A stretch of DNA of 57,737 nucleotides, filler included, from Dugesia japonica (lineage: Eukaryota): NCBI GenBank assembly GCA_001938525.1. It is 5 parts of 5 records of this genome, joined end to end, with 100 filler letters (N's around TTAATTAATTAA, not from the genome) between each part and the next. Parts side by side here need not be neighbours in the genome. Positions count along the whole stretch, not along the records: positions 1 to 9,800 come from MQRL01582793.1; 4 more parts are not named here. The stretch is one strand, 5' to 3'. A program made the position numbers and the translations under genes. The first letter of the stretch is position 1, and each line of letters starts with the position of its first letter. The notes under the pieces are model-generated. The model worked only from the letters and a program-made list of their open reading frames with translations, searched no databases and was not told the origin of the DNA. This document shows, piece after piece, positions 1-46,914 of this stretch.

Positions 1-288
1 AATTAAAATATAAAATTAAAATATAAAATTAAAATATAAAATTAAAATATAAAATTAAAATATAAAATTTAAATATAAAATTAAAATATAAAATTAAAAT
101 ATAAAATTAAAATATAAAATTAAAATATAAAATTAAAATATAAAATTAAAATATAAAATTAAAATATAAAATTAAAATATAAAATTAAAATATAAAATTA
201 AAATATAAAATTAAAATATAAAATTTAAATTAAAATATAAAATTTTAATTAAAATATAAAATATAAAATTTAAATTAAAATATAAAAA
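1..288. repeat. 13-bp AT-only tandem array (AATTAAAATATAA)n
   Basis: About 20 near-perfect units read directly, degenerating just before ORF1. Confidence 0.95.
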
Positions 289-289
289 G

Positions 290-1486
290 TTGGACATGGC
301 AAAAAATATCAAATCTAAAATAATACTTAAAGAAATAGCAAAGCCTACTAACATGAACACTGAACAAGTTAATAAAAGAATTAAAGAATTAAAAAGTCAA
401 ATTAAAGCTCAACAAAAATATAACAACTTTTTCTGTGGTAATGTAATTAATTCAAGAAATATGCAAAATGAATTGTCTATCATGCAACAACCAACAATTA
501 AAGCTATAAATAAAACATTTAAAGAACAACAAATAAAAGATGAAATATTAGATCCAATAGTTAATCCACCAGTAGTTAATCCACCAGTAGTTAATCCAAT
601 AGTTAATCCAATAGTTGATCCATTAAATAATCCACCTATAGTTACTCTACCAGAATTTCCACCAGTATATACACAAAGAGAAATAATAGCAATAAGAAAA
701 AAAACAGCAAAACAAAGAACAATAAAAGCATTAAAAAATAAAATGATGCAAAATGAAAAAGATTTTAGACCTTATACAGAAGATAATATTCAGTATCTAT
801 TATCAGATGTAAATTCACAACCATTAATATTAAATAGTTTTATAATACCTCAACTAGAAAATTTAACAGAAAAAACAACACCATATATAATAGAAAAAAT
901 AGTAGAAGATAAAAAATATTTAACAATTAAATATCCAGATAATATTCATTTGTTATATTTATTAAAAAATAATAATGTTAATTGTTATTATTATAGAGGA
1001 ATTTCTAATTATTTTAGTGAAAAATATCAATATGTAATTTTTGGATATAAAGAACTTATAAAAAATGAAGATCCTAAAACATTAGAGTTTATTTTATTAT
1101 ATGTAACTGAACTTGTAAAAGTAGGATTAAAATATGATAAAGATGCATATTGTAAATTATTATTAGCTAAAAAACTAGGTAGACCTAGAAGAACATTTGA
1201 AGAAGAAATCGCTTCGCTTGACTCTGGACAAATTAGTGATGTACCATCTCAAGATCAAGATCCAGAGTCAGAAGATTTAGATATTGAAAAAATAATACCA
1301 AAACTAGGATCAGGTTTAAAATCTCCTATTGCATTATTTGAAAAATTAACATNATTAATTTCAGCAGTAAAATCTGGACATGATAATCTTAATGAAGATA
1401 ATAAAAAAGTATGTAAAAAATTAAAGATCCTAGGTTTAATATCTAACAAGATTTATGATAAATATAAAATGAAATATTTCCCATGA
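290..1486 (+). CDS. Maverick conserved protein, putative core/membrane-active protein (GasderX-like C-terminus); probable ATG at 296
   Basis: 398-aa ORF with VNPPV repeats; C-terminal GSGL followed by FEKL..LISAVKSGHDN..E...V...L...GLI resembles the helical module common in animal Mavericks. Confidence 0.6.
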   Translation: MDMAKNIKSKIILKEIAKPTNMNTEQVNKRIKELKSQIKAQQKYNNFFCGNVINSRNMQNELSIMQQPTIKAINKTFKEQQIKDEILDPIVNPPVVNPPVVNPIVNPIVDPLNNPPIVTLPEFPPVYTQREIIAIRKKTAKQRTIKALKNKMMQNEKDFRPYTEDNIQYLLSDVNSQPLILNSFIIPQLENLTEKTTPYIIEKIVEDKKYLTIKYPDNIHLLYLLKNNNVNCYYYRGISNYFSEKYQYVIFGYKELIKNEDPKTLEFILLYVTELVKVGLKYDKDAYCKLLLAKKLGRPRRTFEEEIASLDSGQISDVPSQDQDPESEDLDIEKIIPKLGSGLKSPIALFEKLTXLISAVKSGHDNLNEDNKKVCKKLKILGLISNKIYDKYKMKYFP

Positions 1487-1586
1487 AACATGTTAGCATG
1501 CGAACAATTAGATATAAAATGAAATATTTCCCATGAAACATGTTACATTTTACATCTAAGAAATAGAGTGAAACCCATAAAAGGAC

Positions 1587-2262
1587 ATGAGTCATCAATT
1601 CTTAATAGTTGGTAAAGAACATGAATTAATAATGGATTTAAAATATCCTATAGAATTAGATTCAGAATATGAACTTGGATTGTTATGTTTTAGTGTTTAC
1701 AATATTATATTTAACATTACAACTTTAAATAATAAATATAATAATGATACACTTGAACCAGGAGCATATGAAATAAAAGAAATAGCAGATAAATTAAAAA
1801 TTAAAAATGGAATAGAAGTTATACCAGATACATCAACAATAAAATGTAATTTAATAATANNNNNNNNNNNNNNNNNNNNNNNNNNNNNNNNNNNNNNNNN
1901 NNNNNNNNNNNNNNNNNNNNNNNNNNNNNNNNNNNNNNNNNNNNNNNNNNNATTCAGATAATAAAATTGATATTTCAAATATTAACATGATAAATGTAAC
2001 ATGTAATATTGTTAAAGGTAATTATCTTAAATCAGATCGTGGTGAAACAGAACAAATTAATTTATTATATTCATTTCCTATAAATTCAGTTCCATTTGGT
2101 TATAAAATTCTAGAAAGACCATCAACATGTATTTATTCTAAAATTAATACAAATTACATATCAAGATTNNNNNNNNNNNNNNNNNNNNAAAACTTTAACA
2201 CTATAGATTTTAACAATGAGGTGATTTCAATATTAGTACATCTACGTAAATATCGACATTAG
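1587..2262 (+). CDS. Minor capsid (penton) protein, split by N gaps
   Basis: PIELDSEYELGL, FNIT..NNK, EPGAYEI, INVTCNIVKGNY, LYSF, PFGYKILERP and IDFNNE.ISI.VHLR match the Polinton minor capsid pattern; the two ORF calls flank one gap. Confidence 0.85.
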
Positions 2263-2474
2263 ATTTTAGATTTTAGATTTTAGATTTTACATTTCACATT
2301 TCGCATATTTAGATTTTACATTTTACATATTTAGATTTTAGATTTTCCAAGTCTTGCATGACTCGGTAATTTTATAAGTTACATTTTTACATTTTAGATT
2401 TTGGAAGGAATGCATGCCTTCGAAATTATTACATTTTTCATATTTAATAAATAGCAAAGCTGGCCTACGGACAA

Positions 2475-2916
2475 ATGACTTATAATTTATTAGACTTTTT
2501 AAAAACATTTGGAATCAATACAACTACTAATTTTGATTTATATTCTATTGCTAACTTTTTAGATTTAGATTTAGAAATTTATATGAAAAATGAGATACCT
2601 AAAATATTACCTGATACAAATATTATTTTTAATTATCAAAATTCAAATCAAAATGGAATACATTGGACATGTTACAAAGATCATCAATATTTTGATTCTT
2701 TTGGTTTAAAACCTTTAGATCAACTTGAAAAGTATGTAACTAAATATAATGAAATTCAAGTTCAACATTATGGAACTAAAATATGTGGAGTATTATGTAT
2801 TTATTTTTTTATATAAAATCTCTCATGAAACATTTGATAATATCGCTTCGCTGACCTTGGGACAAATTATATCTGAGATGAAAGATTTATATGATAAAAT
2901 GAAACATGAAACATGA
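2475..2916 (+). CDS. Adenain-like cysteine maturation protease
   Basis: Catalytic motifs GIHW, YFDSFG, QVQ and ICG..C; removing one T from the poly-T near 2803-2810 extends the frame (YFLYKISHETF...) to TGA at 2914-2916. Confidence 0.9.
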
Positions 2917-2944
2917 AACATTTTACATTTAATAAAAGGATAAC

Positions 2945-4626
2945 ATGAATAAGTTTGGTGAAAGTATTAATGGTGTTAATACTACACAAATATTAAAAAA
3001 GGTAGATGCTAAATTTAGAACCTCAGATGCAATAAATGAAAATAAATTTGTAAATGAAACAGGTGACATGATCTCATGTTTAAAAATAATTGAAGATCCT
3101 TTAGATCTCCATGATGCAGTTAATTTAAAATATATTAAAACTCTTGAAGATAAATTAAAGACTCATGAATTAATATTCTCTAAATATTTAAAAATAAATA
3201 TTAACAAATATTATTTAGAATATAAAGCTGAACGTTTAAATAATCAATCTATAAATGATAAAATTAAAAATCTAACAAATAAATGTTCAGTATCAAAATA
3301 TGCTGATATCACTACTGAAATCCAAAGATTATTACTTGAAGTATTTCCATTTAAAAAAAGTGATCTAATAAATAAATTTAAAATCTTAATTAAAGATGAT
3401 CTATCTAAGAAATTAACTAAAGATGTTGACATGTTACATGATAAACTTAACAATTTACATGAAAATATTAATAAGAAAACATTTGATGAATACTTTCTTA
3501 ATATTAATACATTAAAATCTAACATTGATAATTTTATACTTAAAACATCAAATATAAGAAAAGAAGTTAAAATGATAAGACCACAACTTCATAAAATACA
3601 TGTTAAAAGATTAAATGAGTCATATGAAAATTATAAAGAAAAACTTGACATAAAAAATATAAAATATTTCATTGATAATTATTTACCACATTATTTTATT
3701 GAAACTGTTTATGAAATATTTAAATTTAAAAATAATAAATATAGCATTATGGAAAAATATGTTCACAATTTAGATTTTAAAAGAANNNNNNNNNNNNNNN
3801 NNNNNNNNNNNNNNNNNNNNNNNNNNNNNNNNNNNNNNNNNNNNNNNNNNNNNNNNNNNNNNNNNNNNNNNNNNNNNNNNNNNNNNNNNNNNNNNNNNNN
3901 NNNNNNNNNNNNNNNNNNNNNNNNNNNNNNNNNNNNNNNNNNNNNNNNNNNNNNNNNNNNNNNNNNNNNNNNNNTGATAGCTCTATTATAAATAAAGAAG
4001 TAAATATAAATTATATTGAAATAATTTTACTAAAAGGACTTAATTTAAATGAATTAAGTATTAACTTATTTAAATATGAAATACTTGATAGATTGACTAA
4101 AGAATTTAATATGATAAAAGAAAGACTTCACATAAAACATCTTAACATGTTTAATGTTTTATTTAAAAATTATAAAGAAAAACTTACACCTAAAGCATTA
4201 AAACCTTTAAGAGAAATGTTTAATAAATATTTACTTTATGATAGCGCTACGCTGGCGTCTACACATAAAAGTAATAACCCTGATATATTATTTTCAATTA
4301 ATTCTAGTCAAGAATTTAGTTATATGGAAAAATATGTACATGATTTTGTTTTTATAACGAAAGATATTTTTAGTATTACTTTAAGTACTAATATAAAAAG
4401 AAAACATGCTATAATTATAGATGGAGAATGTCAGATGGATAAATTTTTATATGCCATTAATATTAATAAAATTGGTGTATCATTTTTATGTATTCCTAAG
4501 GATAATAAATTTAACATTTATCGTGAAAACATTGAAATCTCTAGAGATGAAATTATAACTTTTATTTTAATATATTTTCCAGTAAAAGTTATCATAAAGA
4601 ATTTAAACATTAAATTTGTTATATGA
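2945..4626 (+). CDS. Putative fibre/accessory virion protein with internal duplication; likely one ORF across the 3786-3974 gap
   Basis: N-terminal MNKFG..., FVNETGDM and P.D.HDAVNLKY tail-fibre-like motif; frame is open from 3976 into the 4093 ORF; LH....NYKEKL and MEKYVH occur in both halves. Confidence 0.55.
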
Positions 4627-4629
4627 AAA

Positions 4630-5250
4630 ATGGATACAGAAAGTTTATATCCTAATTTGTCAGGAGTTCAGCATAATGATTTTGATGAAAGTAAAAACTA
4701 TACAATATTAGATTTAAAAAATGAAATTGCATTATCTAGAATTAGAGATTTTGAAAATGACCTTTACTTTATAAAAGATAAAATTAAACATTATAAGAAA
4801 ATACATAAAAGATGGAACAGAATAGATACAAGTATAAAATATACACAAATAGGTGTTAGTGTAATAATTGGAATTACAGGTGTTATATTAATTACACCAG
4901 CTGGAATTGCAATAACCGCTGTTGGTATACCGATTATTACTGGTGCAATTTCCATGTTACCTGTAATTGGAACATTAAATACTTCAGTGGTTAAATCTAG
5001 AAAAGAAAAGTATGAAAAGTTAATTAAGAAATTAGAATGTGTTAAAAATAAATTATTCTTATTTCAACANAAAGCAGTTAATGATGAAATACTTACTGAT
5101 GAAGAATTACAGATATCTAAAAATATGGTTAATGAAGTTCATGAGTTGATATCTGGACATAAAAAACAAAAAGATGATAATCTAAAATTATTAGTTGAAA
5201 GTCAAAGTAGAGTTATAAATGAAATGAAGTTGAAATTAGGAATACAATGA
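4630..5250 (+). CDS. Maverick coiled-coil / two-transmembrane protein with N-terminal LYPNL motif
   Basis: 206-aa ORF with a long Gly/Ile-rich hydrophobic hairpin (IGVSVIIGITGVILIT...PIITGAISMLPVIG) flanked by charged helices. Confidence 0.75.
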   Translation: MDTESLYPNLSGVQHNDFDESKNYTILDLKNEIALSRIRDFENDLYFIKDKIKHYKKIHKRWNRIDTSIKYTQIGVSVIIGITGVILITPAGIAITAVGIPIITGAISMLPVIGTLNTSVVKSRKEKYEKLIKKLECVKNKLFLFQXKAVNDEILTDEELQISKNMVNEVHELISGHKKQKDDNLKLLVESQSRVINEMKLKLGIQ

Positions 5251-5345
5251 GGAATGTGAAATGTAAAATATAATAAAAAANNNNNNNNNNNNNNNNNNNN
5301 NNNNNNNNNNNNNNNNNNNNNNNNNNNNNNCAAAAACCTAATAAA

Positions 5346-6592
5346 ATGGAGAGAATTAATAAATTAATAAATATAATTTTACATTATTGTGATGAATTAT
5401 GTGAAATAGAAAATTTACCAGATAAAATTACTGAAGAAGATTATTTTATAACTTTTTACAATAATCTTTATGACTATGAAGAAAAATAAAAAACACTAAT
5501 GGAAAATGAAAGATCTAATAGTGAAAGATCTAATATTAATATTGAAAATGAAACTGTTATTGAAATTGAAAGATCTAATAATGAAAGATCTAATATTAAT
5601 ATTGAAAATGAAAATGAAAATGAAACTGTTATTGAAAATGAAAATGAAAATGAAACTAGTGAAAGTGAAAGTGAAAAATTATTAGTTCTTAGAGATGATT
5701 GTACTAATCCAAGATATGAACATTTATATTCTAAAGCTAAAGCAAGAAATGAAAGATCTAATAATAAAGCAAGAAATGAAAGATCTAATAATAAAATAAC
5801 TAATAATAAAATAACTAATGAAAGATCTAATATTGAAATAACTAATAATAAAATAACTAATGTAATAACTAATATTGAAGAATCTAATATTGAAGAATCT
5901 AATATTGAATCTGAAAGTGAAAGATCTGAAAATGAATCTGAATCTGAAAATGAAAATGAAACACAAATTCCTGAATATGTAAGTAAAAACANNNNNNNNN
6001 NNNNNNNNNNNNNNNNNNNNNNNNNNNNNNNNNNNNNNNNNAAACTGAAAAAAATAAAATAAAACAAGGTAAGATTATTAAATCTAAAATTCAAAATATT
6101 TCATTTGAAGATGAACTTAAAAAATCTATAGAAGATAATATTAAAAAAATAACTGAAAAAGTAAATATAGACAAATTAGCAATTGAATGTCAAAATAATT
6201 ATCTTTCTTTAGAAATAAATTTATCTCGTGAAAATTTAATAGATAATATAAAAAAATATCAAGTTTGTCTTAAAGCTGTTAAAAAAGTGTCATTAGTTTC
6301 ATATGCAAAAATAGGAACATTTTTAATGTATTTAAAANNNNNNNNNNNNNNNNNNNNNNNNNNNNNNAATGCTAAAGATTTTATAAATTATCTAAGTGGA
6401 TATGAAATTAATTATGATATAAGTTATGTTAATAAATTAATTAGATTTGCTTTATTAGTTAATAAATGGAGAGATATTGTTTATTGTGATTTATCATTTA
6501 GAAAAGTTACAAAACATTTTAAAGAAATGGAAAATATAATTGAAAAAGATCCAATATTAAATCAAAAACCAAAATCTAAAATGTTAAGCTAG
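5346..6592 (+). CDS. Unknown Maverick protein with Asn/Glu-rich tandem repeats and helical C-terminal domain; one in-frame TAA near 5487 and two gaps
   Basis: ATG 5346 is in frame with the 5499 ORF; after the 5992-6040 gap an open frame runs into the 6287-6592 ORF. Confidence 0.55.
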
Positions 6593-7408
6593 AATAAGTC
6601 ATCTAACATTTCATCACTTTCCTTATTTAAATAATAATAATTATATTTAGTTTTCCAGTGAAGATTTACTTCATAATCATATTCTAACTTGTTATTAAAT
6701 ATATTAGAGAATAATTCATGATACACATTATCTCTATCAGTTTTATTTAACTTGAAAAATATATAACAATTAGAATTATTTCTNNNNNNNNNNNNNNNNN
6801 NNNNNNNNNNNNNNNNNNNNNNNNNNNNNNNNNCAATTAGAATTATTTCTTATAGAATTTTTATCTAGATGATAATATGTTTGTGAAATATAAATAACAT
6901 TACAATTAGAATGTCGACCTCGAGTGAAATAACTTTTTTGTATCTCTTGATTTTTCTCATTAACTACATCATCAAAAATAATTAGATTTTTCTTTTGTTT
7001 TGAAAGTCTATCACAAGATATTATTTCATTAGGTTTATTACTTAATGTTACAACTATANNNNNNNNNNNNNNNNNNNNNNNNNNNNNNNNNNNNNNNNNN
7101 NNNNNNNNNTGAATTGGTGTATTATAAGTTTTAGGTACTATATTTTGTTTTTCAAATATTAAATTAATTTCTTCTTTTGATAATCCATTTTCAAATCCAA
7201 TATATAACAGTTGAATCTCAAATTGAGAAATTGTTGTAGAATAAATTATTAAATTATCATAATCTAAAAAGTCAGGTGTTAGAAGCATTTTCATAAGTAA
7301 AACATTTTTACCACAACCTGATGAACCTATCATTAAAAGTCTAAAATTATTAGGTAAGATTATATTATTAAAATGTGTAATGTTATTATTCCAGATGTAC
7401 GAAGTCAT
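6589..7408 (-). CDS. A32/FtsK-HerA family DNA packaging ATPase
   Basis: Walker A GSSGCGKN, Walker B LIIFDD, RGRH arginine finger, YISQ; reading continues past the gap (NSNCYIFFKLN...MLDDLF*) to TAG at 6591-6589. Confidence 0.93.
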
Positions 7409-7642
7409 TTCTTATATATTTAATTTGATCATAAATTTCATATAACTCATCTTCTAAATAATAAAATAAAAGTTCAGTTTCATTTCCAATATCAAGATCA
7501 AAATCAAATACATCACTTTCTAAATNNNNNNNNNNNNNNNNNNNNNNNNNNNNNNNNNNNNNNNNNNNNNNNNNNATTAATGTAAAATTCAGACATTCTA
7601 TTATAAAATTTTAGATCAGACATTTTAGATTTTTTATTTTAA

Positions 7643-8982
7643 TCAGAGTGCTGACTTTTGTAATTCATTCGAATAAAATCTACCAAGTATTTTGTCGCCG
7701 TTAAGATTTGATATTTGAAATCTAAAAGGTTTTGTGTTATATATTTTTGTTAGGATATAAATTTTCTTTGACCATTTAAAACTATAACCTTTAGCAAATA
7801 ACTTTTTAATTTTAAACATTCTTACTCGATCTCCAATTTTAAATCTTAATTTTTCTGTGAATAGTTTATCAATTTTAACATGGATACTTTCAGGGTTAAG
7901 TGTTGCATTTTTAGGTGTAACATTAATACTTGAATGTATCGTATTATTAGAAGAATCAATTATATAATCTAATAATGTAGAATTTATATCTTGATTTCCA
8001 ACGGCAGTAAAATGTTTAAAAGTTTATGTTTAAATGTTCGGTTGAATCTTTCAATAACAACTGCTTTACCTTGATTTAATATTGAATATAATTCGATGTT
8101 ATTTTCTAGACAAAAAGATTTAAAATGTTTATTGTAAAATTCTAATCCATGATCTACCCATAATTTATTTGGTATTCTATTATTTTTATCTAAGATATTT
8201 TCAAATGCTTTTGTTATTGATATTCCTGTTTTATTTTTACATAGTTCAATGAATGCATATTTAGTATATAGATCTATAACTGTTAACATAATATGTTTAT
8301 TGTGAAATATTAAATCTGCAGACCAAATATCATCTATGTCATTTACTATTACTTTTAATAAATGTTTTGGTTTTTTATATTCTTTNNNNNNNNNNNNNNN
8401 TAATATATAATTTTTATCACCAACTTCTGACAGTAACTTTTTTAATTTTAATTTATTCTTTTCTTCTTTCATTTTTATTTTTAATTTATTCTTTGATAAC
8501 TGTCCTTTATGGCTCACTTCGCTCGTACCCTGACCAATAATTATTTTACCTTTCATTGCTAATTTAACTAACATTCTTTGAAATCTTTCTTGAAGTGTTG
8601 GATCCTTAATATTATTCATGTCATGTATTAAATTTACATCTGCAATATGACGATCTCGTATATTTTCTGATTTATAGGATATATCATGTTTTAATGCTGA
8701 TTGATCAATTCTATTTATTGGTTCTTCACCTGGCAATGGAATATTATTCTCATCAAGTCGGATATCAAGTCTTGTACCTGGACCAGTATAATTATGTTTG
8801 AATAAATGTCTTTCACCTGGATATTTTTCTGTTGTAATTGGTTTTAATAATGTTGATATTACTTTTGAATTTTGTAAGTCACCACCATGTTTCATATGAT
8901 TTATGCATAAATCTAAATGTCTAGATTTATTCTTTTTTAAAAGGATTTTACCACAATTGTCACATATAAAATTTTTATTCAT
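7643..8982 (-). CDS. Fusion ORF: C2HC zinc finger + parvovirus-type phospholipase A2 + retroviral-like (rve) integrase; -1 frameshift near 8017
   Basis: CDNC-x11-H-x3-C; YTGPG and DQSALKHDISY; DDE triad WSAD / WVDHGLEF / IERFNRT; -1 frame continues NNTIHSSINVTP, FKIGDRVR, KGY...W, GRFYSNELQK to TGA at 7645-7643. Confidence 0.93.
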
Positions 8983-9040
8983 TTATTTTTAAGAGGTAAT
9001 ATTTTAGAGGTAATATTTTACATTTAATATTTTTCATTTA

Positions 9041-9800
9041 TTATATATCTTGACCTTTTACATTTTCAATCATAACAACTTTAGAATTAGAAAGTTTCAT
9101 CTCTACATGTTTTTCTTCTAGTATACACCAATAAATTATCCCTTTAAAATCTGAATCCTTATTTATTTTAAGTGTTACATCTACATTATTAATATTCATT
9201 TTATTATCATGAGCTGATATGTCAAAACAGAATATTGGATATAAATTTCCAAAGTCTAAAAGTGATATTTGAGGTTCTATAAAAAAGTCACGACAACAAT
9301 TTATATAATTTAAATATGGATTTCCCATTTCATTATTTAACATGTTAAATTTTAATTCATTAGCTGGATAGTTTGTATTGTTTAATTGTAATTGAATTCC
9401 TTTTAAATAATTATTTCCAACTTTCTGTATAAATAGATTATCATTCTTTTGAAATGATGAATTTGGAGATTTAAAACAAATAAATATATATCTTGGTTGA
9501 TATGCAAGACTACCAATTTTTAATGAATAGAATGTACCTGTTTCTAAATTTGTTTTACCAGTTATTCTATTTAAATATGAAACTTTAATAGGTTTATCTG
9601 TAGATATTCTTTCTAACATCATTAATTCTGTATTTGGTAATAATCTAACTTCTGGAATATGAAATTCTAAAGTTTCTAATTCTAATTTACCTGATGTTGC
9701 AACTATAGCCGATGGCCCAACTGTTGCACCTTCACCATAAAATAATAATTTATCTTCAATTTGTCTGTTACATCTTAATTCTATACTTGTATTATATAAT
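9041..9800 (-). CDS. Major capsid protein (double jelly-roll), C-terminal half, 5'-truncated by scaffold end
   Basis: Frame open from 9800: IIYNTSIELRCNR, FHIPEVRL, PRYIFICF, LNNTNYP, YPIFCFDIS motifs of Polinton major capsids. Confidence 0.88.
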
Positions 9801-9844
9801 NNNNNNNNNNNNNNNNNNNNNNNNNNNNNNNNNNNNNNNNNNNN

Positions 9845-9856
9845 TTAATTAATTAA
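9845..9856. other. Artificial scaffold linker TTAATTAATTAA
   Basis: Identical six-frame-stop 12-mer between N runs; recurs four times. Confidence 0.95.
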
Positions 9857-12697
9857 NNNNNNNNNNNNNNNNNNNNNNNNNNNNNNNNNNNNNNNNNNNN
9901 TATAATCTTGATCCAAATATTTATTTTTGATTTAGACATTTTGTGGATAATTTTAACTTTGGCTGAACATTTTAATTGAACATATATAATGTTAATTAAT
10001 TTGAGTTTATATTGATTAGTTTGATTTTGTAAATAGACAGGTGAAATTTTATGTAAAATTTTATTGAATTTTATAATTTGAGTTTATATTGATTAGTTTG
10101 AGTTTGTAAATATACAGGTGAAATTTTATGTGGGATTTTATTTTAGACAAGTGAAATCTAATATATGTTGGAATTTTTATGGAATATTATTTAAAGATTT
10201 GTGAAATTATATGTTGGAATTTGTATGGAATTTTATTTTAAAGAAACAGGTGAAATTTTAGTTTATTTTTAATAGTATGTAAAAAGAAAAAATAAAATCA
10301 ATATGTAAAACCTTTTTAAAAATTTTGATTTTACTTTTAAGCACTTTAGAAAATTTCAAGATATTTTAATGAAATTTTTGTAATGTTTAATGATACTTAA
10401 AATTGAGTATATTGTGTTATGTTACGTTTAAATTAGTATAAATACAGATGATATTTTTAGTTGAAACAGTCATTTCATTTACAGACACTGACCTCTCAGG
10501 GAAGCTGTACTCTGGCAAATAAAATTGCTGCCTATAAGGTTTTTGAATAGNNNNNNNNNNNNNNNNNNNNNNNNNNNNNNNNNNNNNNNNNNNNNNNNNN
10601 NNNNNNNNNNNNNNNNNNNNNNNNNNNNNNNNNNNNNNNNNNNNNNNNNNNNNNNNNNNNNNNNNNNNNNNNNNNNNNNNNNNNNNNNNACACAGGGATA
10701 AAAATTAACACCCGTAAAATCACCAATCAGTCATTTATTATATCAGTAATAAATACAAAACATAAAATCTCTTTTGTTGAGTTAAATACCCAACACATAC
10801 TCCAAAAAAATTCATTTTCAGTTCTTGTTGATTTGACATAGAAAGGAGATGAAGTATCAATTGTATGGTAATGGTAAAGTGTGAGATGGAAACGAAATAT
10901 ATATGGCTCACAGTGCAGAACTTCCAGCTACATTGGGGATGATGAGTGATTTGGGTATCTCTTCCGGTAATTTATTTATAAGTAAAATAAAATCAACCTG
11001 CACCATTGTATCAATCATCGAATAATATGAATTAAACTAACGGTAGTAATTGAATATTAATGTGCTTTAATTAACTGTTATGATTATCCTTTTATTTCGA
11101 AGATGTCGCATAGGATTATGAAGACCGACGCATGTAAATCACTTAAAGAGAATAACTGGAAAATCAGTAGTGAGCCGGCAAACAATATACCAGTTCTCAG
11201 GGACTCCATAGGGCTAGAAGGTATGGATATCGAGCCCTGGTAAATCGTGCAAGATCAATTAAAATGGAAAAATGACCAAATTTGAATGATGGAAGAAAAT
11301 ATAGCACACTGGGAGCGACAACACTAGGAGAAACTGCAAAGAGTGGATCATCTGGAAGATCGCGCCTTGGAGTAGGAACAAAGGTACGAGTAACGACTAG
11401 CTCAAATAATTATGCATCAAAGAGAACGAGAAAAGGAACTAGTTACCTTGCTGATTGACACACCGAAATAATTAACCAGCAAAGCTGCTCATCAATACCA
11501 TGTAGGCCACACAACAGGAGGTGAAGGAGTTCGCCAAGCCAACCGAACGACTCTCCCAAAGAATCGAATCCGCTCTAAAGGAGATTCTGTTACCGCTTAA
11601 CGATAATGTACCTGAAAAAAAANNNNNNNNNNNNNNNNNNNNNNNNNNNNNNNNNNNNNNNNNNNNNNNNNNNNNNNNNNNNNNNNNNNNNNNNNNNNNN
11701 NNNNNNNNNNNNNNNNNNNNNNNNNNNTAAACAAACATATTAGATTTAATCAACTGCAATATTAACAAAAATTTAAATTAAGTTTAAAACTTAAAATCAT
11801 CCAATGCCAACAAATCACTTGCGGAATTAAAGAAAAAGTGGTTCGTAATTAATAAAAAATTGCAGGATGAAATCTCAGAGTTACAGCAAAAGAATATGTG
11901 GTTACGCAGGAAGAATACCAAAATAAAGCAACGTGATCTAGCCTCATCAAAACCGGTAGTAACATAACGGAAATTATTAAGTTATACGCTGATCGGGAAA
12001 GCATGTTAATATCCACTGTCAGGACGTTGAAAAATGAAATATTAAATAAGGACAATAATAATCAAATAATAATAATTAAAATAATAATAATTNNNNNNNN
12101 NNNNNNNNGGAGGAATAAAACGGAAGAGGATGCTCAAGACATTGTGGATCTAGATAAGTGATGTAAATATGTCATATTAATAAAATTTTCATGCACATCT
12201 TCTGAACGGACTTTAAATGAAAAATCAATATACTGCAGATAGTTAGAAACATGAGTGGTTCAATAAAATTAAATGACATAAATGCTACAAATTTTAAACA
12301 GCAATACATATCCATATAGTCATTTACGGCGACCAAATAAGGAAACTTGCTGATTTCTAAATAGAACTAAAAAATCCAAATGAGTCAGTGGATGTATTGA
12401 CTATAATCAAAGATATACCTGAAATCTCGTCAAACAAGGTATTAAGTTTGTTTTGGTTAGTTGAACAGTTTTAAGCGTTTTTAGATACCCTTTCATTTTA
12501 TTGGTGGATTTTTTCATTTATTACTTCCAAATATTTCAAAAAATGGATTTTATTGATCTAGATATGGTTGGATTTTTTTTTAATCATTCTGACTTTCTGA
12601 TAAAATATGATAATCATTTTAAATTATTTTATTATTCATTTTATTTAATATAAAAGCTTTGAACAAAATTTTGGTTTTGTTTATTAATATTGGATAA

Positions 12698-13153: not shown

Positions 13154-16100
13154 TCATAAGCTACTTTTATTTGCATTTGACAAATTATCTATAGTTGATC
13201 CAAAATCAATCACCGACGCAGTTGTAATTGAACATAAACCTTTGCTGTCTATCGTTTTCAAATCAAAGTCTTGAGTAAAATAATTTCTAGTCAAGGTCTC
13301 TTCACACGCGGACCAATCATCGATAATTTCCATGTCATAACAATTGACTCTGGGTCTATGAAAACAAGATGCTTCTTTATTTATATCAGGGCTAGTATTT
13401 TTGTTTTCATAAACAATTTCTCCGCAGTTTTCTTTTGAATCATTTGTGAAATTCAACATTTCTTTTTCAGAATAGTCAATTTGAAAAACATCACTTATTA
13501 TTGGAGATCGAAAACTGACTGATTTAATCAATGCATTATTATTACATTTTGGAGAAATTATNAGTAGAGATTGATTATTAATCGGAACATCTTTAAACAG
13601 TTCCATTATACGCTCTGTAGATTCTAGAAATTCTTCTGCTAAATTATCACTGAATTGAGTGAATCTATTGTGATTACAATATATTTGTTCTTCATTGACA
13701 GTTTGAAAATATAAACTATAATTTTTAAAATTTTCTTCTTCGAAAATTAAGTTGGAATTTTCTACTTCAATATCCTTTAAGAAGTCAACAGATTCATAAA
13801 TGTTATTCGTTTCATTTGTACTTTCTTTAACAAATAAATGATTTTTTATTGTGATTTCATTTTTGTTTAAATATAATTCACTTTCTTTCTTATCTACTTC
13901 TACGCCTGGATCATTTGATTTTAAATTAACATATTCTCCATTAAAATCATCAATAAAATCAGTAGAATTTGGAAATTGTAATTCCATATTTTTTGAATAA
14001 AAAACGTTTGTATTACTAGAATTATTTATAAGATCGATTTCAGTCTGGCATTCTTTGGATGTTAATGAAATAACTGAAGTGGATGGATGAATCATTTTAT
14101 TAGGAATATTAGTTTTAGAACTAGTGAGTAATGTTGCACAATCAATAACAGGTAAATCATTTGACCAAGTTTGAATGAATTCATCCTTTTTCACATTATT
14201 GTTTTTTCTATCATCATATTTTTTAGAAGAATAGATTTTCTTGTCTGATAATAATTTGATTACATTTGAATCCATTAAATCGGATTTTTTAGTGAATGAT
14301 TTCGTTTTTCTACAAGAATTTTTCATTTGGTTTAATTTCCATTTTTTGAAATTGCTATTTTTTCTCAATGGTATTCTTTGATGATTTAATAATTCAAATT
14401 TATCAATTGTTTTGATTTCGGATTTTTCTTTGAATTTATCTCGATTGATTTCTGAATGAAATTGGAAATGATTTTTTCTATTTACATTATCTAAATAAAT
14501 ATTTTTTATTGAACCTTGTAAATCAATTTTATCATTAAAACGATTCTGATTGATTTCCAAATAATTAAAATGATTCTGTGATAATTCTTTCATTTCTATT
14601 TCATGTAAAATCGATTTCGTTAGTAATGCAGTTGTGTTTGATTGGTTTTCATTTAATGAAATTTCAGAATTGGATTTCATTGATCCGAATGTTGTAATAT
14701 TTTTAATTACACATTTTGGTTTCGATTTTGAAATGTTTGATTGTATTTTTGAATTGTAAACTATATTTTCATTAATAGATTTTTTGGAGATTGAAAATTT
14801 TGGTTTTGGAGCACGAAAATAATTATACATTTGATATTGTTTTAATTGATANNNNNNNNNNNNNNNNNNNNNNNNNNNNNNNNNNNNNNNNNNNNNNNNN
14901 NNNNNNNNNNNNNNNNNNNNNNNNNNNNNNNNNNNNNNNNNNNNNNNNNNNNNNNNNNNNNNNNNNNNNNNNNNNNNNNNNNNNNNNNNNNNNNNNAAAG
15001 GTCGTTTGAAATGATTTAAACAATATTTATCAATTATATTATTTGGATTCATTTTGTATTTGTTTATTAAATGACTATATTGATTATTTTGTTCTTGAAT
15101 TTTATTATCGTTTAAATTAAATGACTGTGTTGTAACAGCTTCTTTATTGCTTGTATTTTCAACACGAGATTCTAAAGATTTATTTAAACCCCGATTAATA
15201 ACATCGAATTTTCTTTTTGTTTCAAGATTATTAAAAAAATTATGAATAAATACACTTGGAAATTTTTTAGCAGTAAATTTTTCTGTTGAAAATTCATTTA
15301 ATCGATTTTCTATTTCTTCATTTTTAGATGAAATTCCGTCCCATATTTGATTTTCCAATTTACTTTTATTATTATTAATAAACGGAATATTTACAATATT
15401 GAAATGTTCTTTGATTTCTGATGATGAATCGACAGTAAAATGCTGAGGCAATTCTGGAATATAAAACGATTTTGAATCTAAAGAAAAGTCTTTTGAAAAC
15501 GAATTTCGCTGATATTTATTCAATTGTAAATTAAATTGAACCTTTTTATTTGTTAAAATTAATTTTTCATTTAAATTTTGAGAAAATTTCATTATTTCAT
15601 TTTCAGGGTGATATTCTTTAAGAATATTTATTAATTCTATTGGGATATTATTTAATGGCATTTTGTTATCATCTGTATCGAAAAATTTAATTTCATTTTT
15701 CAATATTGAAAAATCAATATATTGACCATTAGTGGTTAATTTCAAATATTTCGTCCAACGAGAAATATCCGCACGCATACCTTCAATAAGAAAATCGATT
15801 AAACCATTTTCATGATTAATCAAAAACGATTTCAACCGATCTAATCTGAAATTATTAAAATCTTGAATTGCCATCTGGAAATTCGAAAATCCCTTTATTA
15901 GATTTATATAATAATCTGGAAAGAAAAATATTAATTCATATTTACTAAACTGCTTATAAAATGAATATTTTCTGTAAAGCTCCAAATCTCCGTATGTAAA
16001 TCCGAAAATCATTTCAAAAATGACCATAGAACAACTGAAATAATCGACATGAAAATCTAGATTTTTGAGATTATTACCATGTTTTGGTAAGGTTTTTTCA

Positions 16101-17038
16101 TTTAAATTTTGAGCTCTAATATGTGGTTCAATATAGTAATAATTACCACAATATCGCATTCGTTTTACTGGGTCTTTCATTGATAAATAATTTTCCCCAA
16201 ATCCGAATTCAACAAAAGCTCTTGAACAATATTGAAGTAAATGAAATTGTTTTACATAACCTAAATCTGTAATTTTCAAAATTCCATTTGTAGTTATTAT
16301 GATATTAGACGGATTCAAATATTTATGAATTATACCTTTTTCATGAAAGTAAGAAACACCTGATAATAACTGAAGAAAAAGATTTCTAACAATATTCATG
16401 AAATCCGGAAAATTTTCTTTGCTTTTATCTAATGTACTATTGCATGTGTATAATAAATGAACAAAATCGTGTTCATCATCAACTTTAGATTTGAGAATTT
16501 TTCTATGCAATAAATAATTAACCAGTTCTAAGCTAACAGACGGATTACTTTCAAATACATACCAGATAGACTGAAATCCATTCTTTTCTATAACAATTTC
16601 TTCAATTAATTTTATTATATGATCTGAATTTAATATCAAAAGTTGTTCAGTTTCTTTCTTTATTGATTTCGTAAGATGATTTGAAAACGAATTAATAATA
16701 TGTTTTAAGATTACATTTTCATTGGTTTGTTTCGATTTTGATAAATAGCAACAGCCGAAATTCTTAGATAATGTTTTACATATATTATTATATTTAATTA
16801 TCGGTTCATTGACATTTGGAAAAATATGCCATGGATAACGTATTTTATTTTCTTTAATAAATAATCTAAAACTTTGGATATGTCCATAAAAATTTTCTTC
16901 ATGTAAAGAAAAATGAATTCTATAATACTTCAGAAATTTATCATTATGACTTGAATTTTTAAATAGAAAATTACTATATCCGGAATTAGGGTTAGTAGAA
17001 GAATTTTTAGAATAATCACAACTAAATTGAATAACCAT
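13154..17038 (-). CDS. Intronless protein-kinase-fold protein (CMGC/CDK-like), probable pseudokinase, with long Asn/Lys/Ser-rich tail
   Basis: 1294-aa ORF with one N gap; QLLSGVSYFHEKGIIHKYLNPSNIIITTNGILKITDLG (subdomains VIa-VII), YYIEPH (VIII), VDYFSCSMVIFEMIFG (IX). Confidence 0.8.
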   Translation of the reverse strand: MVIQFSCDYSKNSSTNPNSGYSNFLFKNSSHNDKFLKYYRIHFSLHEENFYGHIQSFRLFIKENKIRYPWHIFPNVNEPIIKYNNICKTLSKNFGCCYLSKSKQTNENVILKHIINSFSNHLTKSIKKETEQLLILNSDHIIKLIEEIVIEKNGFQSIWYVFESNPSVSLELVNYLLHRKILKSKVDDEHDFVHLLYTCNSTLDKSKENFPDFMNIVRNLFLQLLSGVSYFHEKGIIHKYLNPSNIIITTNGILKITDLGYVKQFHLLQYCSRAFVEFGFGENYLSMKDPVKRMRYCGNYYYIEPHIRAQNLNEKTLPKHGNNLKNLDFHVDYFSCSMVIFEMIFGFTYGDLELYRKYSFYKQFSKYELIFFFPDYYINLIKGFSNFQMAIQDFNNFRLDRLKSFLINHENGLIDFLIEGMRADISRWTKYLKLTTNGQYIDFSILKNEIKFFDTDDNKMPLNNIPIELINILKEYHPENEIMKFSQNLNEKLILTNKKVQFNLQLNKYQRNSFSKDFSLDSKSFYIPELPQHFTVDSSSEIKEHFNIVNIPFINNNKSKLENQIWDGISSKNEEIENRLNEFSTEKFTAKKFPSVFIHNFFNNLETKRKFDVINRGLNKSLESRVENTSNKEAVTTQSFNLNDNKIQEQNNQYSHLINKYKMNPNNIIDKYCLNHFKRPXXXXXXXXXXXXXXXXXXXXXXXXXXXXXXXXXXXXXXXXXXXXXXXXXYQLKQYQMYNYFRAPKPKFSISKKSINENIVYNSKIQSNISKSKPKCVIKNITTFGSMKSNSEISLNENQSNTTALLTKSILHEIEMKELSQNHFNYLEINQNRFNDKIDLQGSIKNIYLDNVNRKNHFQFHSEINRDKFKEKSEIKTIDKFELLNHQRIPLRKNSNFKKWKLNQMKNSCRKTKSFTKKSDLMDSNVIKLLSDKKIYSSKKYDDRKNNNVKKDEFIQTWSNDLPVIDCATLLTSSKTNIPNKMIHPSTSVISLTSKECQTEIDLINNSSNTNVFYSKNMELQFPNSTDFIDDFNGEYVNLKSNDPGVEVDKKESELYLNKNEITIKNHLFVKESTNETNNIYESVDFLKDIEVENSNLIFEEENFKNYSLYFQTVNEEQIYCNHNRFTQFSDNLAEEFLESTERIMELFKDVPINNQSLXIISPKCNNNALIKSVSFRSPIISDVFQIDYSEKEMLNFTNDSKENCGEIVYENKNTSPDINKEASCFHRPRVNCYDMEIIDDWSACEETLTRNYFTQDFDLKTIDSKGLCSITTASVIDFGSTIDNLSNANKSSL

Positions 17039-20000
17039 GATGAAATTATGTGGAAAACTTTAGAGAAAAATCTATCACTAGAATCGTTGTAAGCATCAAT
17101 AATAATTATTTAATTTTAATATATCACAAAATTTAGTATTAAAATAATTTTCATTAATTATTTAATAATAAATCAATATTATTAAGTAAATATTTATTAA
17201 TGTTCAATTCAAATTATAAATGATTTAACACATGAAAATTCAGAATTGTATTTGGAGATGTGTTACCTTAAAGTTTTGAAACAATAAAGCTAAATATATT
17301 TTCTAAAAGTAGTATTATTAGTATTTGTTTTTTACTAATAGTTTTTGTGGGGAGATTCAGACAAAATATTTACAAAATATTAACTCATTCATGTACTTAT
17401 TTATAAGCACAACGTATTATAAAAGTAAAATCCAAACTTTTGAAAGCACTACATATTTCCAAATCCGATATATTCTGATCTAACTAAAGCGGGCTCAACT
17501 TGTTGTTGAATTGCGTTGTTCAATGTTGTCTTTAAAGCTTTCGATGCATTCAATAATGATGTTGCAGTCAAGTTTATTTTTTATCAAGTTAATTTTAGAA
17601 ATTTTCAGCTTCATATTTTATAAAGTAATCGAAAAATTTTCTTCAATCATTTGCTCAACATAATTTAATATCTCAACAGCAAATTTGATGGTCCCTTTTC
17701 TCAACTATTTAGTCGTACAATCTTACACCCATTCTTTTTATAACGTCTAATTATAGAAGTGGTGTTTTATTATTTCTTGCAATTTTTGTTGATTCTGCAA
17801 TTTATTTATCTTCTTGATATAATTTTTATGAAAATCTCTGAACTAGTTATACAAAACTTTCCATTTGGTTTTTGAAGATTAACAGGTAAGTTATCTGTAT
17901 CTTCTAACCTGACATAATCTGAATCTTCTGTGATTTGCATTACTTGCCGATATTTGTTATTATTTTTAAATACTTCATTCTTCGGAGGACGTATTGATAT
18001 TAATTTTTATAAAGGGTATTAAAAGATTTTAAATTAACATATAATTTGCTATCCGATTACAACAATTGCTAAAATTTAAACAAGTTTAAGTTAATTCCAA
18101 GCAAAAGAAACATATTTGAAACTTAATAATGCAGTTCTGTCGGCTTTAGTTTGATCTCAGATTTTGACGTATGTAGTAGTGCTTTCAAAAATACGGATTT
18201 ATTACTTTTATAATATGGCAAAAATAATTTGCCAAAATCGCAAGAATTGTTAAGATCACATACGCACTGATATAAATATTTAGAAACAAATACATATACA
18301 AATACCACACACAAACAAATAATTGATACTCAACTCAACAACAGATCAATAAATCTTCAACATACGATGCAACAACCACCAATCAATTCACAACAATCAA
18401 AAAACAAAATCAACAACTCAAAGTGTGATATAAACTCAACATACGATGCAATATCCGATAATATTTCATCACGTGTATTGATTTTCAGACTTTGTTATTT
18501 ATTAAATCAGTAACCTCAATTCACANGCACTTTTATCATTGATAAAATATATCTGAATTTTTTTTGTTTAATTTGAACCAGTCAGTTTTAAGTGTATATA
18601 TTTTATCAACAAACTTTATTGGGAATTTTAAATATTGGAAAATTTTATTTTATCCGGAATTAGTTGTTTATATTTTATTCAATTTTATTATTTATCTGAA
18701 AAATAACTGCAAATATTTTATTTTTTTATATAAATAACTATTTGTTATGTAAAAAATTGAGTACGATTATTTTATGTTTATGTAATTGTAACAAAAAATT
18801 GTCTTCTGGTCTCTAACCTTTANGGACAACAGTTCCAGTTTGATTTAAAATTTTGCACTATAAGGTATAAGACTACTCTGTATTGTTAATACATCAAAAA
18901 TATTATTTTTAAATGTATTTTTTGTTTATTTAAATAAGAACTTTACACATATATTACAATATTTAAAGCTTTTTTAAACGATATTACATTTATATATTAC
19001 ATCATTAACACATAAACAAAGATCAAATAAATTAACACCCATAAAATAATTATCAAAGTTATCAATTTTAGTTTTAAAATATCGAAACATAATATCTTTT
19101 TGTTGAGTAGAAATACCCAACATAATTATGGCATTCCAATTAAATCTNACATAAGCGGACTCGACTGTATTATATTTAATATAATAAAATTTAATTTGAA
19201 AATAAAGAAGTTTCAGTTGAAGTTAAAAACCGATATTTAGTTCAAATAGGTCCTTACTTTTAAATAAGTTAATTCTGAGTTATTATATCAGTGATATCAT
19301 TTAGTTTGATTATTATTAGGAAGATCAACTGGAAGTACCCAAAGAAATGTTTAATGAGGCTAGACAGTTAAGAAAATATCGAAAGTGAAATCTATTACGG
19401 TCGAAGAAATGTCAGAATCTCAGATCTAATCATTGCTTGCACAAATGTATAATTAAACATTTCGTGTCATTTTAATCCATATAGCTCGTTTTACGAATGA
19501 GTTTCAGTTTGTAATGGAGTATCATAATATGATTGGGAGTTCATTGATATGTTTCCATCTGCTATTGAGTTGTTCGACAATGTGATTGAATAGTAGCCGA
19601 GTTTCCTTAGTAGAATTGTTTATTAAAGCTGAGTGAGATTTAACACCTCAATCTTAAACCGTGATGAAAGTTGTGATTAATGGTTCTTTAGTATACACTT
19701 TATGCCTATATACACAATTACCCTTATAATCTTTTATATTGTAGTGCTTAACAAAGAAGATACAATGCCGCCCGGGTTCTAAACGAGCAGCAACACAAAT
19801 AGAAAAGCACCAGCATTAAGTTGAACGATAAACCCATTTTAAAACTTAAAGAGCGGAACAAGGATTTTCAAGAGCAGGATCTTGTCCTGCAGAATGCTAG
19901 CTGACTTAGTAAAAGTTACGCAAATTGTGGTGGCCATGAGGACGAAAATACAAACCAGGTTGGCTGCATACAAGTCAGTTTACGATGACAAAGATAGAGG

Positions 20001-43959: not shown

Positions 43960-44842
43960 ACCATCTAAAAAATGATCGAAAAAACGGAAACAGTAATAAT
44001 CTGATGGGCAATGTCCAAACTATATGGTGGATGTTGCAAAACTTCAAACCTCAAATCTCTGATTTTTAATTGACTCATCTTTGAAGTGTGCGGTTTTGCG
44101 TTATCGTGAAGAAGAATAACGCCTTTTCTGTTAATCAATTCAGGACATTTCTTTCCAAAAGCCGATTTAAAGGTATCTAATTGTCCACAATTGAATTCAC
44201 TGTTGATTGTTTGTATCGATTTAAAAAACTCCCAGTGCACAGATCCTTTTAAATCCCACCAAACAGACAGTAATGTTTTTTTGATGAAAATTTGGTTTTG
44301 GAGACTGAAATACTAATTCACCTGAATTTAACCATTCGTTTCCTATATGTAAATTTTCACACATAACACAATTTTAATAGGATGTTATTATTTGTTTAAG
44401 AAATGGGTTCTTTTCATTACAAATAAAATTTGAATTTGAAAGTGTAATCTTTAAAGAATTTTTGATTTTCACTCAATTTGTAAGGCATCAAAACTCCTGC
44501 CTGAAAAGACTTTCTGATTTGATGTAAATGGTTTCTTAAAGTTTTTATATTGACTGACATCTTATGGGCTAACTCTTCACAAATTTGCCTGGGATCTGAT
44601 TCAACCAAAATTGTCTAAAAATACGATAGTCCACTAATGACGGTCTTTCCGACTTTGAATTGTCCGCAAGACTTTTTTTGCAACTTCGGAATCCTTCAAA
44701 CCAACGGTAACATTGGGCAACACGTAGACTATTACCATTATAAATTGATTTTAAATGATTGGCTGAATCTAAAGAAATTGGCCAAAATAGAATTTATATA
44801 ACAATTTCTTACATGTTTCTTCACAAAATCTTTGTCAGTCAT
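43960..44842 (-). mobile_element. Decayed mariner transposase
   Basis: MPYKL (WVPHEL-like), LSVWWD, LLHDNAKPH and HPPYSLDIA (YSPDL-like) motifs across frameshifts. Confidence 0.9.
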
Positions 44843-46116: not shown

Positions 46117-46184
46117 CAGTGGTTCGGCAAAATAAAAATTACTGTATTAATGGTCCGTGAAGTACCAAAGGTTGGCGACCACTG
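46117..46184. mobile_element. Tiny hAT-Charlie-like remnant
   Basis: CAGTGGTT... and ...AAGGTTGGCGACCACTG ends followed by TTCTAGAG; left TSD does not match. Confidence 0.4.
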
Positions 46185-46192
46185 TTCTAGAG

Positions 46193-46912: not shown

Positions 46913-46914
46913 GA

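Follow-up and report, generated by a model that had tools for sequence, protein, structure and literature searches.

Gene content of the scaffold

The window is a 57,737-nt stretch of Dugesia japonica DNA in five parts, of which positions 1-9800, a single scaffold (MQRL01582793.1), were studied here. This scaffold is occupied by a partial Maverick/Polinton that includes a penton gene, an adenain-like protease, an A32 ATPase, an rve integrase and a C-terminal piece of the capsid gene (Table 1). As the first-pass annotation had described, the genes are tightly packed (~90% of the scaffold is coding), with the ATPase stop and the stop of the opposing ORF overlapping at CTAG 6589-6592. They form two convergent blocks. 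Judged from sequence, the scaffold carries the virion/integrase portion of an endogenous, PLA2-bearing, group-2/Alpha-like Maverick (Polinton). Self-comparison gave no match between the scaffold and the rest of the window. Pieces of Cdc20, PA28 (an exon near 41.4 kb) and mariner in the window are eukaryotic.

Table 1. Features of the Maverick scaffold and its right-hand boundary (loci of the comparison set carry L numbers)
Feature	Position	Strand	Remarks
13-bp tandem repeat, 22 copies	1..287	none	Scaffold end; no partner arm in scaffold
Conserved Maverick ORF	296..1486	+	~60 C-terminal aa after GSG motif match L004 homologue (E 1e-4)
Minor capsid protein (penton)	1587..2262	+	Interrupted by two N gaps (92 and 20)
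Adenain-like cysteine protease	2475..2816	+	His, Asp, Gln and Cys all present
Unassigned ORF(s)	2945..4626	+	Span a 189-N gap; internal duplication
Hydrophobic ORF, two-helix membrane-like	4630..5250	+	Common to reference Mavericks L001 and L003 (E 9e-11, 1e-4)
47-aa ORF (stop 5487-5489), then low-complexity N/E/S-rich ORF over two gaps	5346..6592	+	Stop overlaps ATPase stop
A32/FtsK-like packaging ATPase	6589..7408	-	Pox_A32 E 3e-10 (Pfam)
Integrase C-terminal part	7643..8020	-	Out of frame with 8020..8982; eroded; without chromodomain
PLA2 + integrase core, single ORF	8020..8982	-	Cys-rich N-terminus, GG motif, PLA2 (Y-x-G-x-G loop, HDxxY), GxG motif, basic linker, 15-N gap, rve core with D, D, E
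Major capsid protein, C-terminal part	9041..9800	-	Structure model; homologues carry PF21738
Artificial linker, 44 N + 12 bases + 44 N	9801..9900	none	DNA to the right is unlinked to the element

The Maverick-type virion module named in the first-pass annotation was borne out by the capsid and penton folds, by the protease profile and by the Pfam domains Pox_A32, rve and Phospholip_A2_4. The capsid gene is represented by only the C-terminal 252 aa of ~430-450, and the model of this C-terminal part (pLDDT 90.8) matched the double-jelly-roll capsids of PBCV-1, SGIV, Sputnik and mavirus in Foldseek. For the penton, L008, a homologue with 37-40% identity to the pieces in the window, was folded in place of the window gene and resembled the mavirus penton (E 2.6e-11). 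A protease profile built from 12 sequences matched adenain (E 4.7e-7) and ASFV pS273R. Single-sequence PDB searches with the capsid and protease returned chance matches only, Pfam did not recognize the window penton, protease and capsid pieces, and a capsid peptide scan of IMG/VR found nothing.

The ORF at 296..1486 is presumably PZ-like, a label that we assume. No match to the ORF(s) at 2945-4626 was found in Pfam or among 83 comparison loci, nor to the ORF at 2945-3784 in Atlas; the start of this last ORF resembles an L004 ORF, by eye only. The hydrophobic ORF had a best Atlas score of 0.84, which serves as a lead only, and comparison with the same 83 loci gave no homologue of the ORFs at 5346-6592. 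The tandem repeat at 1..287 could be internal to the element or associated with a TIR. Neither pPolB nor TIRs, both named in the first-pass annotation as parts to be recovered, were found within the scaffold, and half of the capsid gene is also absent. pPolB had no match anywhere in the window, the scaffold ending inside the capsid gene, but is present in the in-frame relatives L033 and L034. Inverted matches within the scaffold were low-complexity only, and the ends of the element lie off it.

The window copy is defective as assembled

The locus had been characterized as near-intact and probably recently active, with intact motifs and a few single-base lesions, two of them in homopolymers. 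As assembled, the copy is defective: damage affects its packaging ATPase, its protease and its integrase, and neither polymerase nor ends lie on the scaffold. Its core enzymes carry no fewer than three disabling lesions, and three gene parts show excess erosion. The ATPase Walker A motif is non-canonical, with Asn directly after Lys; it is canonical in all 27 homologues in which the motif aligned (30 loci matched). The protease frame breaks at ~2805 in a T run, so that the C-terminal helix is lost and the protein ends 5-6 residues past the catalytic Cys, where the 14 homologues shown extend by another helix. The integrase frame breaks at ~8015, at or in a short homopolymer and after the Glu of a D, D, E triad that aligns with invariant columns. 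Given the Walker A Asn, the lost protease C-terminus and a capsid of only 252 aa, the earlier statement that the motifs are intact is not confirmed. PMC8097293 defines intact Mavericks by unbroken core ORFs together with TIRs and a TSD; by that definition the copy here, with its broken integrase and protease frames, is not intact.

The placement of two breaks at or in homopolymers agrees with the earlier description, but conserved-column departures show that the damage exceeds a few single-base events. Departures are high in the ATPase (9/37; its C-terminal piece, with only 4 homologues, was kept outside the test), in the C-terminal part of the penton (9/23) and in the integrase past the break (11/43, vs 3/46 before it; Fisher p=0.019), where none of 60 homologues tested was as eroded. 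For the capsid, PLA2, N-terminal part of the penton and pre-break integrase, erosion does not exceed that of their homologues, and because the capsid, PLA2 and pre-break integrase are this well conserved, intact siblings may exist.

That many N gaps are present was also correct as to density: the scaffold has 10.2 per 10 kb against 0-6.6 in the other four scaffolds, ~3x the pooled value (Poisson p=0.003). One of them, at 6784-6833 inside the ATPase, is a placeholder with a 17-nt duplicated flank. The gap density, the two homopolymer breaks, the 90% coding density and the parts eroded no more than homologues are what would be expected of a young, multi-copy, still competent family whose assembly had collapsed, the lesions being homopolymer errors or rare variants. 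We consider this rather unlikely. The Walker A change is a substitution rather than a homopolymer indel; integrase erosion climbs past the break within one contig, which an assembly slip would not produce; and the ATPase and penton C-terminal part are eroded too. As for the gaps, scaffold 5 also reaches 6.6 per 10 kb, and low-complexity DNA of 21% GC gives gaps by itself. Individual lesions in the window copy could be assembly errors or reflect a mosaic of copies. A word search of sequencing runs identified at least 12 runs in 5 studies, with a best share of 0.39, none reaching half of the words and no RNA run listed; we give these shares no weight.

An in-frame UUUAAAC heptamer, with a modest hairpin downstream (z -2.1, 5/200 shuffles), lies at the integrase break, as a programmed -1 frameshift yielding a functional integrase would have it. 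Such recoding is extremely improbable here, as the part past the break is the most eroded piece tested, fused homologues are continuous at that place, and a homopolymer lesion in the same codon context makes such a heptamer by itself; we rejected it. For the window copy, the frame breaks, the Walker A change and the post-break erosion leave near-intactness and recent activity unsupported. Most Mavericks in genomes are eroded (96% of those in vertebrates; PMC8097293), and as a locus this one is unremarkable.

PLA2X-integrase fusion and the junctions of related loci

Missing from the first-pass gene list was a parvovirus-type phospholipase (PLA2X) in frame with a chromodomain-less integrase, the two forming one ORF. 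The PLA2 domain was recognized by Pfam (Phospholip_A2_4, E 2e-8; PF08398, E 6.7e-9) and its profile matched parvovirus/AAV VP1; the rve match (E 3.8e-6, Pfam) is below its curated cut-off. Both domains occur in 104 of the best 120 homologues. Through the linker only the PLA2 frame stays open in the window (chance 0.016), and the 15-N gap fits five residues that homologues have at the same place. Among 24 aligned proteins, G33, D35, K146 and G150 never vary, and G34 hardly ever does. At the level of reading frames, both here and in homologues, PLA2X and integrase are encoded by this lineage within a single translation unit. We did not find a PLA2-integrase fusion or slippage described in the literature, of which subscription journals, Repbase, figures and supplements could hold one.

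The window integrase ORF stops right after an FYxxEL motif, as in 74 of the best 120 homologues; a chromo-like tail was seen in 2 of those 120. Adintoviruses are defined, in the text available of 10.1101/2024.03.25.586562, by an integrase with a C-terminal chromodomain, a PolB bearing an OTU-like domain at its N-terminus, and reciprocal BLAST of the hexon to reference viruses. The adintovirus label previously given to the element fails on the chromodomain, which is absent in the window.

Linkage is not universal: in 11 loci with at least 500 nt upstream, no PLA2 precedes the integrase. Standalone PLA2X proteins made up 109 of 120 matches in a short-length search. Of 120 short PLA2X proteins, 101 could not be classed. 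A PLA2-seeded scan of IMG/VR returned 34 loci, for the most part contigs of 2-3.5 kb that lack an integrase, and added only 2 junctions; among 28 PLA2-seeded viral loci that have the motif, 26 show no integrase directly downstream. The GTDB scan gave 1 locus.

Junctions were classed in 45 of 116 related loci. The order of the loci followed their similarity to the fused query, which favors fusions and intact bodies, and several loci are near-duplicates. Of these junctions 28 are in frame, 14 at -1 and 3 at +1. An A-run of at least 6 is found at all 17 shifted junctions vs 3/28 in-frame ones, and just one of the 17 shifted integrase frames has its own start codon (Met), the other 16 having none. 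The frames at shifted junctions overlap by only 31-112 nt, and a canonical in-frame slippery heptamer occurs in 9/12 of the -1 overlaps (L001, L003 and L069 are without one, and L001 resembles an in-frame gene that has suffered a lesion). A programmed -1 ribosomal frameshift calls for such a heptamer together with a stimulatory structure downstream; of 9 slip sites, 1 has structure there at z <= -2. On a 40-row tree the junction state changes 8 times.

These shifts could all be mutation or sequencing slips in poly-Lys A-runs of plain in-frame fusions, with no programmed recoding. Among close relatives, only the length of the A-run and the frame vary (L072, A8, -1; L025, A9, in frame; L071, A10, +1), relatives with A8, A9, A10 and A12 runs are in differing frames, a pattern that homopolymer error or decay would yield as well, shifts of -1 and of +1 are both seen, Lys-rich (pX-like) tails yield A-runs for protein reasons, and there is no conserved downstream stimulator. 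We nevertheless regard this as improbable, as the -1 signature is stable in large clusters (kept in 23/30 members listed from two clusters, which comprise 317 and 171 sequences), the same shift appears in two separate assemblies (L066, L078), 36 A-runs of this kind are unbroken within 29 intact integrase bodies, and 109/120 short-length matches are standalone PLA2X. Mavericks are nuclear elements, which would allow shifted integrases to be reached by splicing or non-AUG initiation, the in-frame fusion then being a lineage-specific simplification with no packaging link. This is very unlikely given the A-run at every shifted junction and the short overlaps; moreover, intact vertebrate elements have no introns according to the accessible portions of PMC8097293.

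Packaging model and comparison with known systems

Taken together, the observations are probably best explained by a defective copy of a PLA2-bearing Maverick in which PLA2X and integrase are one translation unit, through slippage or hard fusion, with a role in packaging. In other lineages the integrase frame lacks a start codon and begins across the A-run at the PLA2X end, so that slippage of ribosome or polymerase there would yield much free PLA2X and little PLA2X-integrase. The polyprotein, made by slippage or hard fusion, would be carried in the virion, the likely purpose being to load integrase into the particle via a virion core protein. The adenain-like protease may cut at the conserved GG and GxG motifs, which we take to be adenain-like sites. 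As its counterpart does in parvoviruses, PLA2 would promote membrane escape, and the integrase would arrive together with the genome. In several shifted loci (seen in L001 and L116) the first catalytic Asp motif precedes the next Met, so that gene callers would be expected to cut many Maverick integrases short.

Tentatively, and with a chance that we place slightly short of even, a large Maverick branch could be gag-pol-like: the integrase would never be made alone but only as a C-terminal extension of PLA2X (A-run slippage or hard fusion), packaged and released by the protease, so that particles carry integrase. There would be little sense in tying an integrase to a predicted virion membrane-entry protein unless the integrase is carried in particles. 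If true, this would be sequence evidence for an extracellular infect-and-integrate cycle in animal Mavericks. In retroviral and LTR-retrotransposon gag-pol, the virion protein ORF runs on into the rve integrase, in frame or via a frame shift, and the viral protease cuts the polyprotein. The parallel is an analogy of mechanism, the structural part not being homologous; unlike gag-pol, the Maverick is a dsDNA element with its own polymerase, and would have a phospholipase core carrier and an A-run in place of a structured stimulator. Maverick particles have not been observed, as stated in the part of PMC8097293 available.

As far as the accessible text of PMC8097293 and bioRxiv 10.64898/2026.06.19.733378 goes, group 2 Mavericks/Polintons with phospholipase (Polintoviricetes, Eupolintoviridae) share with the window the double-jelly-roll MCP, penton, adenain-like protease, A32 ATPase, rve integrase, PLA2 and two convergent gene blocks. 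The window scaffold differs in being without pPolB, TIR and TSD, in its damaged core genes and in having PLA2 and integrase as one ORF. Alpha adintoviruses with PLA2X (PMC8502044; bioRxiv 10.1101/2024.03.25.586562, in the sections available) have the parvovirus-type PLA2 with a basic C-terminal stretch and the virion module seen in the window, and the PLA2X gene that marks the Alpha-class virion module (PMC8502044) is present here, fused to the integrase. In the same sections, PLA2X is a separate gene and the integrase has a C-terminal chromodomain, whereas the window has the fusion and no chromodomain; the slippery sites put forward there concern penton and hexon-adenain rather than integrase. 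Sf Mavericks 1 and 2, in the accessible part of PMC5803895, also have a PLA2-bearing ORF ('CAP') and an rve integrase, but as separate ORFs and with a chromodomain on the integrase.

Identity and condition of the element

Scaffold 1, with a coding cover of 90%, carries a genuine element of a familiar type, incomplete and damaged. Its capsid ORF aligns to the C-terminal part of 425-460-aa proteins carrying the double-jelly-roll Pfam family, and its predicted structure (pLDDT 90.8) matches PBCV-1, iridovirus, Sputnik and mavirus capsids. The nearest intact penton homologue has a predicted fold like that of the mavirus penton (E 2.6e-11), a profile search with the protease matched adenain and ASFV pS273R, and the packaging ATPase was assigned to Pox_A32 by Pfam. 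A pPolB query found no match in the window and no TIR was detected in scaffold 1; thus, the Maverick-type identification of the first-pass annotation stands for part of an element. The convergent stops that it placed at 6589-6592 do overlap.

Features of the window by position and strand
Feature	Position	Strand	Description
Penton	1587-2262	+	Similarity to pentons of reference Mavericks
PLA2X-integrase ORF	7984-8982	-	Parvovirus-type PLA2 and rve core, by Pfam
Capsid ORF	9041-9800	-	252 aa; 241 relatives at E ≤ 0.001
CGCTTCGCT-like word	1210, 2844, 4245, 8515		Short, GC-rich; four copies
37-nt direct repeat	1459-1545		Copies the end of ORF1
TTAGATT / TTTTACA repeat tracts	2259-2424, 7606-7651, 8988-9051		Intergenic, 3' of several genes
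Intronless ORF	13154-17059	-	1301 codons
Mobile-element fragments	25382-27856, 28231-28683, 43965-44312, 50873-51415	-
Mobile-element fragment	45985-46943	+

The same annotation had described the module as near-intact with intact motifs, which is at odds with several of its genes. At a T run, the protease frame stops 5-6 residues past the catalytic Cys, a point beyond which the 14 homologues listed continue; the integrase frame is broken near 8015. With these two frames broken, the element falls outside the definition of an intact Maverick in the available text of PMC8097293. Walker A of the ATPase has Asn after the lysine, unlike all 27 homologues covering the motif, which have the canonical form. 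Erosion was scored leave-one-out, as the number of conserved columns at which a sequence departs; it was ordinary for the capsid (0/13), the N-terminal part of the penton (1/16), PLA2 (2/31) and the integrase before the break (3/46). Departures numbered 9/37 in the ATPase (3/32 homologues as bad), 5/22 in the protease (3/13), 9/23, possibly inflated by a gap, in the C-terminal part of the penton (0/14) and 11/43 in the integrase after the break (0/60). The integrase is more eroded after its break than before it within one contig (p = 0.019), suggesting an old break in this copy's lineage.

Composition and neighboring scaffolds

The window consists of five scaffolds with artificial linkers between them. 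Scaffold 1 (1-9800) has a GC content of 21%, versus 24-32% in the other scaffolds, which carry Cdc20, PA28 and mariner pieces and gave no match to it by blastn or tblastx. These pieces point to a eukaryotic host, probably an animal. The 10 multi-N gaps of scaffold 1 are denser than those of the other scaffolds pooled (p = 0.003), as expected from the earlier proposal of copy collapse, although AT-rich low-complexity DNA also fits; the scaffold may be mosaic, built from different copies. The observed/expected CpG ratio is 0.37 in the element (1-9800) versus 0.77-0.95 in the four host scaffolds, a deficit that methylation of the element or CpG avoidance by a virus might explain. The CGCTTCGCT-like word, for which the pattern used gave no further match in the window, is a possible regulatory signal in this very AT-rich element, and the intergenic tracts and 37-nt repeat are candidate late-gene promoter or terminator elements.

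Elsewhere, the intronless ORF has, by eye, a kinase-like stretch whose catalytic loop is non-canonical; no Pfam family matched the N-terminal 564 aa of this ORF at E ≤ 0.01. One mobile-element fragment is a Pfam-confirmed mariner transposase, and the remainder, judged by eye, resemble pieces of LINE, pogo-like and LTR gag sequences.

The PLA2X-integrase junction

In the window, PLA2X and integrase form one ORF; across the linker the PLA2 frame alone remains open, and a 15-N gap leaves room for five residues present there in homologues. Both Pfam domains occur in 104 of the best 120 of 687 homologues, from a search restricted to 182-581 aa that favours fusions. Among these 120, 74 terminate at the same point as the window's integrase and two have a chromodomain-like tail. 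The window linker also holds an in-frame A6 heptamer (8440-8445 region, minus strand) whose -1 frame stops within a few codons; slippage there would give stand-alone PLA2X, the opposite of the logic in shifted relatives.

Among 116 related loci, a sampling that favours fusions, 60 had the PLA2 motif including the GxG end. In 45 of those, an integrase began at most 240 nt away, with 28 junctions in frame, 14 at -1 and three at +1. In relatives, a start-less integrase frame overlaps the PLA2X end, with an own Met in 1/17 shifted integrases. An A-run of at least 6 lies in the linker of 17/17 shifted and 3/28 in-frame loci (p = 1e-9 assuming independence, which fails here), and 9/12 of the -1 overlaps contain an in-frame slippery heptamer. 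The 230-codon integrase body is intact in 11/14 shifted loci of sufficient length, and all 36 A-runs inside 29 intact bodies are unbroken. Tails of 120 short PLA2X matches show the integrase frame at -1 in 11, +1 in five and in frame in three (101 unclassed). The -1 signature is kept in 23/30 listed members of two clusters (317 and 171 sequences) and in 7/45 members of three others, with the rest of those 45 unclassed. An integrase tree of 40 rows needs eight changes between junction states; it places the window integrase at the end of a long branch inside a clade made up of seven in-frame rows and one shifted row.

Several points speak against a reading of these junctions as slippage or fixed fusion: the sampling is biased toward fusions, A-runs of 8, 9, 10 and 12 among close relatives produce differing frames, Lys-rich tails themselves give rise to A-runs, the shifted junction of locus L001 is probably a lesion, and many PLA2 and integrase genes are not linked.

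In six of the collected loci (L006, L055, L056, L058, L101, L103), the protease ORF reaches 333-500 aa, double to triple its usual length, and is thus apparently fused to further domains. L116 is a Maverick with PLA2X, a +1-shifted integrase and capsid and pPolB matches; its GTDB record bears the title of a bacterial MAG, and it is probably a binning contaminant. Many IMG/VR contigs of 2.3-3.5 kb (within L084-L113) have a related PLA2 domain but no integrase and are possibly small ssDNA viruses.

Proposed mechanism and comparison with known systems

A-run slippage would yield a minor PLA2X-integrase product, and the fusion would have become fixed in lineages such as the window's. We lean toward polymerase slippage over classical ribosomal shifting, since both -1 and +1 junctions occur and a stimulator is lacking, strong structure lying downstream of the slip site in 1/9. 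The conserved GG and GxG motifs flanking PLA2 resemble adenain-type cleavage sites. Packaging by fusion is familiar from gag-pol, and a PLA2X-integrase fusion would likewise bring integrase into the particle, given these motifs and the virion entry role of PLA2 in parvoviruses (described in the available portion of PMC8502044). At a little less than even confidence, we propose that a large Maverick branch makes integrase only as a C-terminal extension of PLA2X, slippage-dosed or hard-fused, packaged and protease-released.

No report of this fusion was found in the accessible literature (most subscription papers and Repbase excepted), which included PMC3671162, PMC11296320, PMC12567637, PMC11071296, PMC11161782 and 10.64898/2026.06.19.733378. 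Slippery sites are proposed for penton and hexon-adenain alone in the available text of 10.1101/2024.03.25.586562. The N-terminal domain of stand-alone PLA2X matches is DUF5679, and a DUF5679 protein is reported in >40% of coral polintoviruses (PMC11131425, available text). As a variant, the joint PLA2X-integrase reading unit merits follow-up. In the portions available, PMC8502044 keeps the PLA2 protein separate from a chromodomain-bearing integrase and PMC5803895 likewise gives PLA2 protein and integrase with chromodomain as separate genes, whereas in the window the two are fused in one ORF and the integrase is without a chromodomain.
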